The notes under the pieces: model-generated
Databases searched by the model: none
Seen by the model: only the letters and a program-made list of their open reading frames with translations
What the model was told of the DNA's origin: nothing
In this document: positions 14,225 through 55,468 of the stretch, piece after piece
How positions within the stretch are numbered: the stretch's first letter is position 1
How the letters are laid out: each line of letters begins with the position of its first letter
Assembly (NCBI GenBank): GCA_050950825.1
Contig: JBMNIH010000002.1
Coordinates: forward strand, 224,001 to 288,000
Origin: Clostridia bacterium
GTDB taxonomy: Bacteria > Bacillota > Clostridia > JAAYHZ01
DNA: 64,000 nucleotides
Direction of reading: 5' to 3'
Made by a program: the position numbers and the translations under genes

Positions 14225-16000
14225 GATAGTGTCAACTTACTGTAGGGAAAAAATGAATAGATGACATCCTGAATTTTTGTTAGAGCAACACTACTATGGG
14301 AATGCTGCTAATAGCAAGAATCCCTCATATAATCTGCCGGATAGAGCAGACTCTTCACGTGTTCGTGGTTGTTGTCTACCCAATTATATCACATCAACAT
14401 CACCTTTTGTAAGAAGTCGGGTTTTCCCTACAATCTTATCCACACAAACCTCTTAACCATTTCAATTCATTGTATAAACCGGTTTTATGCCCTTTCGCAA
14501 GAACCGTTAGTTTACTGTTCCATACATTCTCATAACCGCTTGATAATCTCCTTAATTCTTTTATCAGTATTTCTTGTTCTTCTCGTTTTTTGACCGCTGC
14601 TTTTCTTCGCTTTTGTGCCATAACCAAGTCATATACCCTTCCGCCGTTCTTTGTATAGATCAATAACTTCGACATCTTTTCTACACCGATTTTAGACCAT
14701 CCTCTGGGGCGTGTACTCAAACGATCGGAATATACATGACTTATATGACCTTCCGCACTACAGCCGACAATTTCAGCCCCCTTGTCTTTTTTTATTTTTA
14801 TCCCGTCCCAATTATTTAATATATATCGCTTTGCACCTTTTATGGTTTCCAGTTTGCTATCATTGCTTGTCAATTCAATTATTTTTTCAAATGTCTCCTT
14901 CACTTTGTTTTTATCGGCATGGTTTATCGCTTCCTCCAGTTCTTGCCGTATCGTTCTGTCATCCAAATGAGCCGTTGCTTGTTTAATGTATTTTTTTAGA
15001 TGGAAGTTATCCAACACAAACTTACTCTTTGGCAGCCAATTCAGACCATTCTTAATCCATGAAGCTCCGTCACCCGATAAGTATATGGTTTCCAAGCATT
15101 CGACATCGTACTGTTCGTCTATGTAGTCCGCCACTTTAATCCAAAGATCATCCGTGTTTTCACATATTTCTCCGAAATAGCGGACATTCTTTAATACATT
15201 TCTGTTTTTGCTGCTTTTTTCCGTATCAATTCCCTCATGCACATAAACAAGTTTCGGTGTGACTTTCTTTTTTGTGCCTTTCTTTTCTTTTGATACACAC
15301 TTGGTTTGTAAAGATACATAATCCTCATCCGCCTCGACGTACAATGTTTTCAACTTCTTCTTTTTTTCCACCTTTATTTCGGGCTCGATGATCTCCAGAT
15401 TATGTATTTTCTTCATTACCGCTTGTTTGCTGATTTCATCAAGGTATGTGGCCATTTCTCCCGCTTTCCTGTAACTGCTTTCAACGGCTTCTTCTATTAC
15501 ATTAATAACGACATCTGCACTTACTCTATCATGCGGTTCTATTCCTATAATCTTATCGACCAAGTATTCTCGTTTACCTCCATTTTTCAGCTTAAAATAT
15601 GTCCTGCTATATCTAACCTCTCCGAAAATCGTTAAAATCTTGTTTTCGTCTTTTCTGATAATTTCCCAGTACTTTTTTCTCTCTTCATTGTTTCTCAATA
15701 GATCATCCATATCTTCAATTACTTCTTGTAAGATATTTCTAATAAGTTCAAACACATCTTCTTTTAAATTCAGGATCAAGTCTGCCAAGTCTCCACCGTT
15801 ACTTACAAAATCTTTAACCCTTTTTTCAATATTTTTTACCCCAAATTCGATAAAATGGTTTATACTATTGTACATAGATGACATCCTTTCTTAAGAATAT
15901 TTGTTTTAGGTTTATTAAATATATCTTAACAGGATGTCATCTTCTTTTCAATTATAGCTGGTATTTTATTCCTCAATCCCTACAGTAACTTTACTCTATG
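14225..16000 (-). mobile_element. ISLre2-family IS, copy 1 (1776 bp)
   Basis: IRs GATAGTGTCAACTTACTGTAGGGA / CATAGAGTAAAGTTACTGTAGGGA; 8-bp TSD ATAAGCTT (14217-14224, 16001-16008). Confidence 0.92.
14436..15875 (-). CDS. ISLre2-family (UPF0236) DDE transposase
   Basis: YVEADED, LSGDGASWI, LDNFHL and GCSAEGHISH motifs; likely start MYNSINHF after AAAGGA. Confidence 0.9.
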   Translation of the reverse strand: MYNSINHFIEFGVKNIEKRVKDFVSNGGDLADLILNLKEDVFELIRNILQEVIEDMDDLLRNNEERKKYWEIIRKDENKILTIFGEVRYSRTYFKLKNGGKREYLVDKIIGIEPHDRVSADVVINVIEEAVESSYRKAGEMATYLDEISKQAVMKKIHNLEIIEPEIKVEKKKKLKTLYVEADEDYVSLQTKCVSKEKKGTKKKVTPKLVYVHEGIDTEKSSKNRNVLKNVRYFGEICENTDDLWIKVADYIDEQYDVECLETIYLSGDGASWIKNGLNWLPKSKFVLDNFHLKKYIKQATAHLDDRTIRQELEEAINHADKNKVKETFEKIIELTSNDSKLETIKGAKRYILNNWDGIKIKKDKGAEIVGCSAEGHISHVYSDRLSTRPRGWSKIGVEKMSKLLIYTKNGGRVYDLVMAQKRRKAAVKKREEQEILIKELRRLSSGYENVWNSKLTVLAKGHKTGLYNELKWLRGLCG

Positions 16001-37955: not shown

Positions 37956-39731
37956 GATAGTGTCAACTTACTGTAGGGAAAAAATGAATAGATGACATCC
38001 TGAATTTTTGTTAGAGCAACACTACTATGGGAATGCTGCTAATAGCAAGAATCCCTCATATAATCTGCCGGATGGAGCAGACTCTTCACGTATTCGTGGT
38101 TGTTGTCTACCCAATTATATCACATCAACATCACCTTTTGTAAGAAGTCGGGTTTTCCCTACAATCTTATCCACACAAGCCTCTTAACCATTTCAATTCA
38201 TTGTATAAACCGGTTTTATGCCCTTTCGCAAGAACCGTTAGTTTACTGTTCCATACATTCTCATAACCGCTTGATAATCTCCTTAATTCTTTTATCAGTA
38301 TTTCTTGTTCTTCTCGTTTTTTGACCGCTGCTTTTCTTCGCTTTTGTGCCATAACCAAGTCATATACCCTTCCGCCGTTCTTTGTATAGATCAATAACTT
38401 CGACATCTTTTCTACACCGATTTTAGACCATCCTCCGGGGCGTGTACTCAAACGATCGGAATATACATGACTTATATGACCTTCCGCACTACAGCCGACA
38501 ATTTCAGCCCCCTTGTCTTTTTTTATTTTTATCCCGTCCCAATTATTTAATATATATCGCTTTGCACCTTTTATGGTTTCCAGTTTGCTATCATTGCTTG
38601 TCAATTCAATTATTTTTTCAAATGTCTCCTTCACTTTGTTTTTATCGGCATGGTTTATCGCTTCCTCCAGTTCTTGCCGTATCGTTCTGTCATCCAAATG
38701 AGCCGTTGCTTGTTTAATGTATTTTTTTAGATGGAAGTTATCCAACACAAACTTACTCTTTGGCAGCCAATTCAGACCATTCTTAATCCATGAAGCTCCG
38801 TCACCCGATAAGTATATGGTTTCCAAGCATTCGACATCGTACTGTTCGTCTATGTAGTCCGCCACTTTAATCCAAAGATCATCCGTGTTTTCACATATTT
38901 CTCCGAAATAGCGGACATTCTTTAATACATTTCTGTTTTTGCTGCTTTTTTCCGTATCAATTCCCTCATGCACATAAACAAGTTTCGGTGTGACTTTCTT
39001 TTTTGTGCCTTTCTTTTCTTTTGATACACACTTGGTTTGTAAAGATACATAATCCTCATCCGCCTCGACGTACAATGTTTTCAACTTCTTCTTTTTTTCC
39101 ACCTTTATTTCGGGCTCGATGATCTCCGGATTATGTATTTTCTTCATTACCGCTTGTTTGCTGATTTCATCAAGGTATGTGGCCATTTCTCCCGCTTTCC
39201 TGTAACTGCTTTCAACGGCTTCTTCTATTACATTAATAACGACATCTGCACTTACTCTATCATGCGGTTCTATTCCTATAATCTTATCGACCAAGTATTC
39301 TCGTTTACCTCCATTTTTCAGCTTAAAATATGTCCTGCTATATCTAACCTCTCCGAAAATCGTTAAAATCTTGTTTTCGTCTTTTCTGATAATTTCCCGG
39401 TACTTTTTTCTCTCTTCATTGTTTCTCAATAGATCATCCATATCTTCAATTACTTCTTGTAAGATATTTCTAATAAGTTCAAACACATCTTCTTTTAAAT
39501 TCAGGATCAAGTCTGCCAAGTCTCCACCGTTACTTACAAAATCTTTAACCCTTTTTTCAATATTTTTTACCCCAAATTCGATAAAATGGTTTATACTATT
39601 GTACATAGATGACATCCTTTCTTAAGAATATTTGTTTTAGGTTTATTAAATATATCTTAACAGGATGTCATCTTCTTTTCAATTATAGCTGGTATTTTAT
39701 TCCTCAATCCCTACAGTAACTTTACTCTATG
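37956..39731 (-). mobile_element. ISLre2-family IS, copy 2 (1776 bp)
   Basis: Near-identical to copy 1; 9-bp TSD ATAATGACA (37947-37955, 39732-39740). Confidence 0.92.
38167..39606 (-). CDS. ISLre2-family transposase
   Basis: Three amino-acid differences from copy 1. Confidence 0.9.
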   Translation of the reverse strand: MYNSINHFIEFGVKNIEKRVKDFVSNGGDLADLILNLKEDVFELIRNILQEVIEDMDDLLRNNEERKKYREIIRKDENKILTIFGEVRYSRTYFKLKNGGKREYLVDKIIGIEPHDRVSADVVINVIEEAVESSYRKAGEMATYLDEISKQAVMKKIHNPEIIEPEIKVEKKKKLKTLYVEADEDYVSLQTKCVSKEKKGTKKKVTPKLVYVHEGIDTEKSSKNRNVLKNVRYFGEICENTDDLWIKVADYIDEQYDVECLETIYLSGDGASWIKNGLNWLPKSKFVLDNFHLKKYIKQATAHLDDRTIRQELEEAINHADKNKVKETFEKIIELTSNDSKLETIKGAKRYILNNWDGIKIKKDKGAEIVGCSAEGHISHVYSDRLSTRPGGWSKIGVEKMSKLLIYTKNGGRVYDLVMAQKRRKAAVKKREEQEILIKELRRLSSGYENVWNSKLTVLAKGHKTGLYNELKWLRGLCG

Positions 39732-47994: not shown

Positions 47995-48113
47995 GGCAGC
48001 GTAAAGTAAGTTTCGGATAATAATCAATGGAAGAATATAACAAATAGAAAGAGGACCCCGATTGTGATATGATTAAATTTCCATACAAAAAATCACAAAG
48101 GAAGGTGTCCTCT

Positions 48114-49598
48114 ATGTATAAAAGTATACTACATTTTATTGAAAATGGGTTAGTCGAAATTGAAAAAATGATGGGTGATATTCTGGCAGGTAAAAAAGAT
48201 GCCGATGATTTGACTGCACTCGTTAATAAAGTTACGTCAACGTTAGCGGTCAGCCTTATAGTGGATTTGTACGAGAAAGCTGATAACGATATACGAGAAA
48301 GCAGCGTGAGAAAAAAGTATTGGAATGTCGAGCACAGGAACAAAAAGAAAACCATCGTAGATGTCATGGGTAAGGTTGAATTCTGCCGAACCGGATATTG
48401 TGCGAAAGGAACGGGTGAGTATGTATATCTTTTGGATCAGGTGCTCGGATTTGAACCGCACCAGAAGGTAACGCTAGGCGCAGCTGCGAGAGCCTTGGAA
48501 GAAAGTATAGACAGCAGTTACCGCAAAGGCGGAGAGAATGCAAGCATAAAAGCGGAAGAAGGCATTAGCAAACAAGCCGTGATGGATCTGGTACATGAGA
48601 TTGAGGCGGACATGCCGATGCCGGAACCGGAAGGAAAGAAGAAGATAAAAAGGCTTCATGTCATAGCCGATGAAGATCATGTGGCGGCACAGTTTTGGAA
48701 TGAAAAGGGCGATTTGAAGCGAGATGCGAGGGGCCATAAGATTAATACCCTGATGCCTAAGCTTGTTTGTGTATTCGAGGATATTATCAATGAATCGGGG
48801 GAAGCATCCAAGAATCCCAGATATAAGCTGATCGGAAAAAAATACTTTTGCGGTATTTACGAGGGTGGCAAAGGCAACGAAAAGCTTTGGATGGAGGTTG
48901 CCGAATACATAGAAAAAACATACGATACGGACTATCTTGAGAGAATATACGTAGTCGGAGACGGAGCTTCGTGGATAAAAAAAGGATGCGAATATTTGGA
49001 GAACAGCAAATATGTCCTTGATAAATACCATATGATGAAATATATAAACAGGTCAGTGGCGCATCTTTACGATAGCGCGGACGAGGTGAAAGACTGGATT
49101 TGGGGAGCCTTGAATCGTTTGGACAAAAAGGAATTGAAGAATATCTATGAGCAGATCCTGAAGGTTACGGAAAGTGAAAACAAGAAGCAAGAAGTGGAAG
49201 ATGCGTTAAGATATTTTCTAAATCATTGGCAAGGGATAAAAACCCGAGTGGAAGAAACAAGCGGCTGGACATATTGCATAGAAGGGCAAATAAGCCATGT
49301 ATTGTCGGCAAGAATGAGCAGCAGACCAATGGGATGGAGCGAATTGGGTTGCGACCGCATGGCAAGGCTCAGAGCGTACAAAAGAAACGGCGGTAAGATT
49401 CTTGACTTGCTAAAATATCAAAAACAACGAAAAAAGCAAAAGGAAAGGCGTGAAGCACAAGAAGAATTGATAAGAGATCTGAGAAGAAGACATTCAAAAT
49501 GGACGTATGCGGAAGATACCAGACGTCACATACATGGTTTGGAAAGGAGCAGTATGAAGTGGCTAAAGAATATGACCACACTGGCTTGGGACGCATAA
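48114..49598 (+). CDS. ISLre2-family (UPF0236) transposase
   Basis: ADEDHV, VGDGASWI, LDKYH, EGQISHVLSARMSSRPMGWS; start MYKSILHF after AAGGAAGG. Confidence 0.9.
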   Translation: MYKSILHFIENGLVEIEKMMGDILAGKKDADDLTALVNKVTSTLAVSLIVDLYEKADNDIRESSVRKKYWNVEHRNKKKTIVDVMGKVEFCRTGYCAKGTGEYVYLLDQVLGFEPHQKVTLGAAARALEESIDSSYRKGGENASIKAEEGISKQAVMDLVHEIEADMPMPEPEGKKKIKRLHVIADEDHVAAQFWNEKGDLKRDARGHKINTLMPKLVCVFEDIINESGEASKNPRYKLIGKKYFCGIYEGGKGNEKLWMEVAEYIEKTYDTDYLERIYVVGDGASWIKKGCEYLENSKYVLDKYHMMKYINRSVAHLYDSADEVKDWIWGALNRLDKKELKNIYEQILKVTESENKKQEVEDALRYFLNHWQGIKTRVEETSGWTYCIEGQISHVLSARMSSRPMGWSELGCDRMARLRAYKRNGGKILDLLKYQKQRKKQKERREAQEELIRDLRRRHSKWTYAEDTRRHIHGLERSSMKWLKNMTTLAWDA

Positions 49599-49641
49599 GC
49601 AGCTTGAACCGCTATGACTTTGTAACCGTGTGACGGTAGGC

Positions 49642-49805
49642 TTTATGCCGCGAAAGTCGCTTTACGATGAGTAGACGGCATGTTAGGCTTGTCTGCCTGG
49701 CATCAAACACACAAAGCCGTATCCGGCTTCACCCTGTAGGAAGATGCCGCAGAGGCCACTAAACATGCCGGCAGAGGCTCGTCGTAAAGCGAACCGTGGA
49801 ATAAA
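49642..49805 (+). ncRNA. Putative rod-like structured RNA in the ISLre2 3' region
   Basis: Nested stems with G-U pairs that are valid only on the + strand. Confidence 0.55.
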
Positions 49806-49990
49806 TGAGTACTTTACTTGTGCATTTGCTATTGTCTTCATGAATTCTTGAATAGGGGTGATGTGTAATAATCAATTAAAAAAACAAATGTGGAAAAATT
49901 GATGGAAATGATATATGATACAGACAAGATTTAATCTTATCATAAGGGTGAACTCTCTCTTTTTATTTCCGAATGTATATTGACGCTATC

Positions 49991-54191: not shown

Positions 54192-54691
54192 GATAGTGTC
54201 AACTTACTGTAGGGAAAAAATGAATAGATAACATCCTGAATTTTTGTTAGAGCAACACTTCTATGGGAATGCTGCTAATAGCAAGAATCCCTCATATCAT
54301 CTGCCGAAAGGAACAGACTCTTCACGTATTTATGGTTGTTGTCTACCAGATTATATCACATCAACACCGCCTTTTGTAAAAAGTTGGGTTTTCCCTACGA
54401 TCTTATCCACACAAGCCTCTTAACCATTTCAATTCATTGTATAAACAGGTTTTATACCCTTTCGCAAAAACCGTTAGTTTACTGTTCCATACGTTTTCAT
54501 AACCGCTTGATAATCTCCTCAATTCTTTTACCGGTATGTCTTTGTTCTTCTCGTTTTTTGACCGCCGCTTTTCTTAGCTTTTGTGCCATAACCAAGTCAT
54601 ATACCCTTCCGCCGTTCTTTGTATATATCAATAGCTTTGACATCTTTTCTACACCGATTTTAGACCATCCTCTAGGTCGTGTACTCAAACG
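54192..54691 (-). mobile_element. ISLre2 copy 3: diverged 3'-end remnant (500 bp)
   Basis: Same IR and 3' region as copies 1 and 2 with substitutions and a frameshift; fused to a lyase fragment. Confidence 0.88.
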
Positions 54692-55468
54692 ATGGGTATC
54701 GGAAAAACTTTTAAAGCCGTTTCCGCAACCTGTCCCGAAGCCGTCGGAGGTCATCGGTTTGAAAGAACCCTTTTGCTTTCCGATATTTCGTCAAAAGATT
54801 GCTACATAATCGATGTTTTTCGAACCGAAGAAGGTTCCGGCGGTAACCGGGATCGGTACGGCTGCATAATAAATATTCAAACGGACACCTCCATAAAAGA
54901 GCAATGGCATGTTACATGGGAAATTGACGATTCCTATTACCAAATGCATCATGGAGATTTGCCGGTTTATTTAGAATATACCGATGTCAGCGGTCCTTCC
55001 ACGGTCATTTTGTGTGAATCTTGGGTGGATTTATGGAGAGATAAAAAAGACAGCAAAGGAACCGACCGAATGGGAGATTGGATACCTATGTTAATTACAA
55101 GGAAAACCGGACCGGAAGGGCTAAGTTCCGTATGCGTAAGTGTCATCGAGCCATACGAAGGACGGACGAATATATTTTCCGTAAAAAGATATTCCGCGAC
55201 GGATTTTAACGGTACCGATTCGGAAAGCAACGTGGCAATAGTAATTTTATTGGAAAACGGTTTAAAAGTCTTTATCGTATTTACGGACCAAGAACCTGAG
55301 AATCGACAAGATGATCAAAATATTTTCGGGTTCCTCAATGGGATCACTATGAAAAACTTGAAGGTGAAGTGTTATCACTGAACGAATCTTTTTGAAGTAC
55401 ATATAAAGAACGGAAAAATCGATTGCATGGAAGGAAATCCGGAGATACCGGTGGAAATTTCATATTAA
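54692..55468 (+). pseudogene. C-terminal remnant of a heparinase II/III-like paralog
   Basis: Aligns by eye to about 60610-61579 (GKTFKA..CPEA, WEIDDSYY, LCESWVDLWR) with internal deletions and a stop. Confidence 0.85.

Follow-up and report, generated by a model that had tools for sequence, protein, structure and literature searches.

The transposase genes of the insertion sequences (IS) IS10 and IS50 are reportedly protected from transcription that enters from outside the element, by a "fold-back inhibition" associated with the Kleckner and Reznikoff laboratories and with the 1998 review of Mahillon and Chandler. In these systems, an inverted repeat at the left end pairs with the translation start only in RNA begun upstream of it, and the native transcript begins inside the structure and is translatable. 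In copy-out-paste-in elements such as IS911, IS2, and IS30, promoters form at the junction of the ends. Here we analyze IS-A, the name given here to an ISLre2-family element of 1776 bp that lies on the minus strand of a 64,000-nucleotide stretch of the genome of a Clostridia bacterium, an uncultured inhabitant of anaerobic digesters (contig JBMNIH010000002.1, positions 224,001 to 288,000); the whole of that stretch is called the window. IS-A shares with IS10 and IS50 the inverted repeat over the translation start and is predicted also to make a native transcript that is translatable, although IS10 and IS50 belong to the IS4 family and IS-A to the Mutator-like ISLre2 elements. It differs from them in the predicted place of the hairpin's 5' arm, which falls between the two boxes of a putative extended −10 promoter and has a mirror copy at the right end. 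Its outward TTGACA and the −10-like hexamers at its left tip also recall the way in which expression is tied to abutted ends in IS911, IS2, and IS30, where the junction promoter acts on transcription; the unlocking that has been proposed for IS-A would act on translation, through RNA pairing. On balance we lean towards the view that IS-A combines a lock against outside transcription with a two-part terminal inverted repeat, two ordinary IS features that share one sequence.

A stem-loop that sequesters the Shine-Dalgarno (SD) sequence is documented in IS200 (PMC4513863). IS-A resembles IS200 in having an RNA hairpin, in cis, over the ribosome site of the transposase gene, where it would limit translation, but the IS200 hairpin is part of the normal mRNA and a separate terminator stops outside transcription, whereas the normal mRNA of IS-A is predicted to lack the arm. 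The IS110-family element ISPpu9 likewise has a structured 5' leader that hides the ribosome-binding site (RBS). ISPpu9 also has two separate, demonstrated small RNAs (sRNAs), Asr9 and Ssr9, one of them antisense (PMC8450116), unlike IS-A, in which a competitor would act in cis on RNA spanning the junction. ISLre2 itself was described as having a Mutator-like DDE transposase, terminal inverted repeats, and 8- to 9-bp target duplications, and as inserting in a fixed orientation on the upstream side of sigma-A promoters (Guerillot et al. 2014, PMC3942029). Its circles were detected in the same work by polymerase chain reaction, as "data not shown," a result repeated elsewhere by citation, and ISLre2 is counted among the circle-forming families (PMC9333248). 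The parts of PMC3942029 consulted make no mention of a nested promoter, an RBS hairpin, or a second repeat block, and we found no published account of a nested promoter, hairpin, or mirrored block in ISLre2 or TnGBS elements, the supplementary figures on terminal repeats (PMC3942029) and on the ISGka4 promoter (PMC8024623) being outside that search. Knowledge of transposase control in ISLre2-family elements is very limited.

An earlier note, made from the letters of this DNA alone, had recognized an ISLre2 element with circular intermediates and had proposed that a 5' arm hides the transposase RBS, that a second copy of the RBS region near the opposite end captures this arm as a decoy in RNA crossing the junction of the circle, and that transposase is translated only after excision. 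All the sequences that it quoted lie on the minus strand where it had placed them, including a TATAAT at 15956-15951 and the extended −10 box TGATATAAT at 14391-14383. The family assignment held: the transposase matched Pfam PF06782 (UPF0236) at 3.7e-88 (296 bits; cut-off, 24) and NCBIfam NF033529 ("ISLre2 family transposase") at 6.2e-89 (299 bits; curated cut-off, 200), as a UPF0236 or ISLre2-type (p-MULT 3) transposase does. BLAST against the element's own genome found three full copies of IS-A, a copy truncated by the end of a contig, and a 3' fragment of 502 bp. Flanking sequences differ among the full copies, and their target duplications are of 8 bp, one apparently of 9 bp (AAGCTTAT, TGTCATTAT, read as 8 or 9 bp, and AAACAAAA), which is why the tips can be placed exactly at 14225 and 16000. 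IS-A is thus complete, and its terminal inverted repeat, imperfect and 23 to 24 nt long (87% over 23 nt), together with the 8- or 9-bp duplications is what ISLre2 elements are known for. Downstream of the right tip, at 15, 17, and 16 nt in the three full copies, come TTGACA, TTGACA, and TTGACT, the first of which is part of an 11/12 promoter match; this agrees with the insertion reported for ISLre2 (PMC3942029), which has one orientation and keeps a fixed distance to a sigma-A −35 box downstream. The note's choice of ATG 15875 as the start of the transposase gene was also confirmed, since the N-terminus conserved in relatives, MYxxIxHF, lines up with it. The open reading frame listing had picked an ATG further upstream, at 15884, which we reject as the start.

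The motif AGATGACATCCT is present three times in IS-A, in the arm (L1), over the ribosome site (L2), and in the proposed decoy (R1); their positions are collected in the table. A repeat search found that 15876-15887 is complementary to 15931-15942 over 12 nt (100%), with 43 nt between, and that 14259-14271 is complementary to 15930-15942 over 13 nt (100%), so that both of the pairings described earlier are there base for base. When the window was searched with the 13-mer, allowing up to two mismatches, seven occurrences were found against 0.97 expected; none of 100 shuffles reached seven, and all seven fall in IS copies. The 5' hairpin of IS-A has a predicted energy of −25.6 kcal/mol (z = −6.7), which was equaled in none of 200 shuffles. 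An RBS lock is recognized by the 3' arm of an inverted repeat lying over the SD or start codon, and this is what we found in IS-A.

The hairpin is real and conserved across the family. We sampled 39 ISLre2-family elements with 31 to 95% protein identity to IS-A, labeled L001 and so on and including IS-B, a second element in the window; as these elements are related, counts over them are descriptive and are not counts of independent trials. In all 39, a block upstream of the leader pairs with the SD and start region in duplexes of −17 to −28 kcal/mol, and the predicted duplex ends within a few nucleotides of the start codon. Of 18 elements compared for ungapped helices, all 18 have one, of 7 to 15 bp, whose end lies at −8 to +2 of the start codon. 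The 39 elements reduce to 31 distinct L1:L2 helices, which contain 492 Watson-Crick pairs, 19 G-U pairs, and twelve 1×1 mismatches, the ratio of G-U to A·C combinations, 19:6, being biased by the duplex program. Helix sequences vary by lineage (for example, AGATGACATCCT, AGAGAGCACCT, ATAAGAGACC, ATAGAGGTTG, and AGGTGGCATCC), and the pairing often goes past the shared motif to TTTGTG/CACAAA. In an alignment-free test of covariation, cognate L1 and L2 formed duplexes with a mean of −22.3 kcal/mol and non-cognate pairs a mean of −11.6 kcal/mol; the cognate L2 ranked first in 16 of 23 elements and among the top three in 21. RNAalifold, applied to 30 leaders aligned with MAFFT, returned a consensus fold with 0 pairs, the arms of different lineages being out of register, and a search of Rfam with five loci at permissive thresholds matched no family.

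The arm lies within a putative promoter and need not be part of the transposase mRNA. The earlier note had placed the arm just after a TATAAT at 15956-15951. This TATAAT has neither a −35 box nor a TG, and its position is a TAnnnT box in only 2 of 8 aligned left ends of the IS-A clade (56 to 63% protein identity). The promoter that we infer to be native to IS-A is TTGAAA-17-TGtTAAGAT, at 15951-15923 on the minus strand, and the −35 box in the clade is TTGAAA or TAGAAA. In every one of the 39 elements, which between them have 35 distinct 5' regions, a TGnTAnnnT directly follows the arm and begins between −58 and −46 relative to the start codon; by chance such a motif is expected in about 1.2% of 13-nt windows. 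As the arm is in the promoter spacer, the native RNA should start near 15916 and lack the arm, and with a conserved extended −10 box downstream of the arm, the element's own mRNA should be translatable without excision. For the same reason, it does not follow that transposase is translated only after excision.

Predicted costs of opening the RNA from the SD to the AUG agree with this division. For IS-A the cost is 6.5 to 6.7 kcal/mol in the native RNA and 20 to 21 kcal/mol in RNA that carries the arm, whether it starts at the TATAAT at 15956-15951 or in the flank. Over the family, minimum free energies for 25 elements (selected as described below) gave mean costs of 5.0 kcal/mol for native RNA and 16.4 kcal/mol for read-through RNA, and read-through RNA costs over 3 kcal/mol more than native RNA in 24 of the 25.

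A lock against outside transcription is the best reading of the hairpin, a known kind of device but a new one for the ISLre2 family. The transposase promoter would lie in the loop of the inverted repeat, with L1 in the promoter spacer and L2 over the SD and the spacer to the start codon. RNA from this promoter would start after L1 and leave the ribosome site free, and RNA from upstream, be it host read-through or any start at the TATAAT, would carry L1 and have its ribosome site buried in the 12-bp hairpin. Because only RNA begun upstream would be locked, the hairpin would guard against accidental activation from outside.

To what the right end corresponds was addressed by comparing the ends of the 37 of 39 elements that had enough 3' sequence. 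Elements matching the terminal repeat at fewer than 16 of 22 positions (IS-B, at that stage, and L057, L060, and L061), elements with their best match away from the termini (L033, L035, L049, L050, and L067), and duplicates (L025, L048, and L053) were dropped, which left 25 for the end alignment and the opening costs. The counts of L1/R1 differences and the cognate duplex tests also dropped the near-duplicates L003 and L038, and the difference counts added L057. Family ends consist of a terminal repeat of about 22 to 24 bp that is alike across the family, a short spacer, and then a second block. The gapped end comparison showed the right-end second block to be a mirror of the arm-containing block on the left. 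In 18 of the 25 elements, the alignment between the inner parts of the two ends reached a shuffle p of ≤0.05, the other seven having p values of 0.07 to 0.56. The likeness often runs beyond the helix-forming part into the −10 box (L001, L003, L030, L031, L047, L052, and L066), and in IS-B, where ten copies establish the ends, the two ends agree at 14 of 15 bases around the −10 box. These mirrored, gapped alignments identify R1 as the right half of a long two-part inverted repeat, the very alternative that the earlier note had named as speaking against its decoy. An ungapped 17-mer search had returned 15 distant elements without a 3' copy; we rejected this result as a false negative caused by indels, as the gapped comparison and the duplex energies showed the block. 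At the right ends of L001, L003, and IS-B, the mirrored block keeps an intact inward extended −10 box, which would give RNA antisense to the 3' untranslated region (UTR).

L1 and R1 match far more loosely than L1 and L2 pair. Their comparison gave 353 identities against 38 transversions, 22 gaps, 5 changes of the A·C type, and 10 wobble-compatible changes; the 10:5 ratio of wobble to A·C changes is not significant and is too small to decide anything. The arm core has changed in three lineages of the IS-A clade (L056/L060, L058, and L065), and after those changes L2 followed, fully so in L058, and R1 did not. Across the family, cognate left-by-right duplexes nonetheless average −17.3 kcal/mol against −10.8 kcal/mol for non-cognate ones, with the cognate partner first in 6 of 23 elements and among the top three in 15. 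The covariation of arm, RBS, and decoy that had been suggested as a check is therefore seen for arm and RBS; for arm and decoy, complementarity is lineage-specific across the family, and the decoy does not track the arm within the IS-A clade. The note had also drawn support from a C-to-U change in the decoy of a third copy that keeps a G-U pair; this copy is the fragment at 54192-54693, and as it has neither arm nor RBS, the change is uninformative on pairing. Whereas the terminal 24 bp are alike throughout, the second block varies in sequence by lineage, and the spacing from the terminal to the second block in IS-A differs between the two ends (34 versus 10 nt).

The outward extended −10 box in the 3' UTR, which the note had made the source of junction RNA, is present in IS-A but confined to its clade. 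It occurs at the same distance from the right tip in L025, L055, and L056 and is also visible in L057 and L060; it is absent outside the clade, and in many family members the 3' UTR is only 41 to 64 nt long. We found no sense-strand terminator between the stop codon and the right end of IS-A.

When RNA from the 3' promoter across abutted ends was simulated for IS-A, the minimum-energy fold kept the arm paired to the RBS, yet the RBS could be forced open at a cost of just 6.3 kcal/mol, as the arm is able to pair with R1 instead. Minimum-energy opening costs for IS-A were 20.9 kcal/mol in read-through RNA, 6.6 in junction RNA, 6.5 in native RNA, and 19.6 with the R1 block shuffled, and the ensemble values were 20.1, 6.3, and 6.7 kcal/mol for read-through, junction, and native RNA. 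For IS-B the costs in read-through, junction, and native RNA were 17.0, 4.2, and 4.0 kcal/mol, and 10.9 kcal/mol with the block shuffled. The relief is complete in these two elements. Over the 25 elements the mean fell from 16.4 kcal/mol in read-through RNA to 10.5 in junction RNA and was 16.5 when the right-end block alone was shuffled; relief of more than 3 kcal/mol was seen in 19 of 25 and was lost on that shuffling. The right-end duplex is stronger than the L2 duplex in IS-A, L055, L056, L004, and L054, and about equal to it in L046. The comparison of linear and junction-spanning folds that the note had called for thus shows a predicted relief of the RBS that depends on the decoy block. 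Such an unlocking at the junction is, in these models, a physically plausible, family-wide possibility and could be a mere by-product; both the relief and the left-right complementarity would follow from any mirrored block, whether kept for protein or for RNA.

The tips themselves hold a further promoter candidate. Of 28 family elements, 22 have TTGAC at a distance of 5 nt from the right tip, and the left tip of IS-A has GTAAAG at the place mirroring it (14230-14235; 15988-15998). The right-tip TTGACA and the left-tip TAGAGT or TAAAGT come to lie 16 to 18 nt apart only with junction spacers of 5 to 6 or 9 to 10 bp. Judged from these hexamers, a junction promoter might arise where the tips abut; RNA from it would include the arm and lack the decoy. 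A single A/C asymmetry between the tips turns a −10-like box into a −35-like box.

Twenty public runs contained the element, six of them digester RNA libraries. For four RNA runs (X15 to X18) contigs only were used, which span the element and give neither starts nor strand; no right-to-left junction was seen in the contigs of these four runs, and contigs drop rare forms. Contigs of X15 and X16 directly join the two terminal repeats, 14225-14252 to 15978-16000, about 51 bp with the interior missing. The sides of this joint (14252 to 15978) are 21 nt, too short to interpret; it could be a minimal derivative without both motif blocks or an assembly artifact.

In the reading towards which we lean, L1 would be the left second block and R1 its mirror at the right end, and the second block would most likely be a DNA site for the transposase at both ends, where putative binding at the left end would also repress the promoter. 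As R1 mirrors L1, it could pair with L1 in RNA running over abutted ends and leave the ribosome site open; we take this unlocking as a consequence of the design and not its purpose. Several results sit uneasily with this. The second block drifts by lineage and the terminal 24 bp are constant, so that a protein site would need the specificity of the transposase to drift in every lineage; the spacing of the block is unequal at the two ends; the right-end block is complementary to its own arm in a lineage-specific way; and it lowers the cost of opening the RBS at the junction in most elements, completely in IS-A and IS-B. Use of the native promoter, moreover, rests on conservation, as RNA contigs cannot show starts. 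The results on the second block would also be expected from an RNA decoy under selection, and the sequence by itself does not tell the two apart. Such a decoy would make R1 a sensor of the junction, selected so that RNA from the element's own 3' end stays translatable; the RNA would come from read-through of the transposase gene or from the promoter-like site at 14412-14383, with a circle or a tandem dimer as its only route to the left end. Lock and long terminal repeats would then be a single RNA device, in which a lineage-specific copy at the right end lets only RNA from the element's own 3' end neutralize the arm. We regard selection for sensing as a minority possibility, and we are about equally doubtful of the single device. 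The drop in opening cost and its dependence on the R1 block, the cognate excess in duplex energy, the elements in which the right-end duplex beats L2, and the fact that R1 would be transcribed ahead of L2 all fit such a sensor, as do the fixed tip distance of the 3' extended −10 box in IS-A, L025, L055, and L056, the lack of a terminator found between stop codon and right end, and the circular ISLre2 forms reported in PMC3942029; the drift of the second block and its unequal tip distance favor some role as RNA. What holds us back is that the native promoter would give arm-less RNA in every state and make a lock on the normal mRNA needless, and that the minimum-energy junction fold keeps the arm on the RBS. 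Furthermore, R1 ignores the changes in L1 in L056, L058, and L065, most left-right differences break pairing, the 3' promoter is limited to one clade in a family with many short 3' UTRs, RNA from a junction promoter using the right-tip TTGAC would begin downstream of R1 and be locked, and the contigs of the four RNA runs held no joint.

Two other explanations seem to us less probable still. L1, L2, and R1 might all be sites for transposase or a repressor, L1 and L2 forming an operator pair around promoter and leader, with the RNA hairpin incidental. L1 and R1 are indeed partners in an inverted repeat, L1 does lie in the promoter spacer, and the core GATGNCATC is itself palindromic in the IS-A clade, its center base flipping in L057 and L063. 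The palindromy is not seen in other lineages, however, and protein sites alone leave it unexplained that L2 falls on the SD and start codon with the duplex ending beside the start codon in every element, that L1 and L2 pair much more tightly than L1 and R1 match, and that pairing often extends beyond the shared motif; we consider this account improbable. A short RNA bearing R1, made from the 3' promoter, might instead act in trans and titrate the arm of locked transcripts from any copy. The promoter-like site and the 13-bp pairing of R1 with the arm would allow it, and the sRNAs of ISPpu9 offer a loose parallel (PMC8450116), but there is no terminator or defined 3' end after R1, the promoter is limited to the IS-A clade, and no sign of a discrete small RNA appeared in the contigs of the four RNA runs; of all the explanations we give this one the least credence. 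With the lock and the two-part repeat as the preferred reading, a hairpin in every lineage examined and a mirror in most provide a concrete, testable regulatory model for the ISLre2 family. If the mirror acts as RNA, it would be a new coupling of transposase synthesis to circle formation in a copy-out-paste-in element: translation of the transposase would tell "self, excised" RNA from host read-through, a translational analogue of the junction promoter. If it does not, IS-A is one more case of a classic safeguard.

Features of IS-A and its copies in the window, with the basis of each assignment
Feature	Positions	Strand	Basis
IS-A, whole ISLre2-family element	14225..16000	−	Three full copies, PF06782, NF033529
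Left terminal inverted repeat CATAGAGTAAAGTTACTGTAGGGA, with −10-like TAGAGT and TAAAGT	15977..16000	−	Repeat search, copy comparison
−35 box TTGAAA of the inferred native transposase promoter	15946..15951	−	TTGAAA-17-TAAGAT with TG
L1 (arm) AGATGACATCCTG, within the native-promoter spacer; left copy of the subterminal inverted-repeat block	15930..15942	−	
Extended −10 box TGTTAAGAT within the hairpin loop	15923..15931	−	Promoter scan; motif in 39/39 elements
L2 AGGATGTCATCT, part of the SD plus spacer up to the start codon; complementary to L1	15876..15887	−	
Transposase gene, 479 amino acids, start ATG 15875	14436..15875	−	PF06782, NF033529, aligned relatives
Internal 11-nt copy, TGTAGGGAAAA, of the terminal repeat's inner core	14422..14432	−	Repeat search
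Outward promoter-like site in the 3' UTR: TTACAA, 18 nt, TATAAT after TGa	14383..14412	−	Sequence
R1 (decoy) CAGGATGTCATCTAT, copy of the subterminal block at the right end, 10 nt inward of the terminal repeat	14257..14271	−	
Right terminal inverted repeat; outward TTGACA (14235-14230) 5 nt from the tip	14225..14248	−	Repeats, copies
Second full IS-A copy, all three motif copies present	37956..39731	−	BLAST, motif search
5'-truncated IS-A fragment, 502 bp, 93% identical; only the right-end motif, with a C-to-T change	54192..54693	−	

The internal copy of TGTAGGGAAAA lies directly 3' of the transposase stop codon and is inverted relative to the right end, so that the 3' UTR of IS-A is bracketed, like a small separate element, by this copy and the right end. 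A search of the genome for transposase-less derivatives of IS-A (mini-elements) found none.

IS-B, at about 47995-49990 on the plus strand of the window, is an element of about 2.0 kb with 41% protein identity to IS-A; it has at least 11 copies in the genome and a 9-bp target duplication. It has the same design, with the arm AGAGGACCCC, the extended −10 box TGATATGAT, and the RBS side GGTGTCCTCT. Between the stop codon and the right end of IS-B, L027, L002, and L058 there is a conserved structured element of about 105 to 135 nt, of which L055, L056, and L065 have a variant. It shows compensatory changes in two stems (for example, CUUUACGAUGAG/CUCGUCGUAAAG versus CUUGAUAACGAG/CUCGUUGUCAAG) and a conserved unpaired AGAGGCUC, has no Rfam match, and has an outer stem that resembles the tip sequences of the element itself.

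Family members were also found side by side. In L025, a metagenome contig, a copy of IS-A lies upstream of an IS-B copy and stops about 10 bp short of its left tip (positions 1750-1800), a natural right-end/left-end junction of two different family members; the same insertion site also holds IS-B in the present genome (C6:108964), there without IS-A. In L041 (2900-3090), two different ISLre2-family elements stand left end to left end with 1 to 2 bp between their tips.

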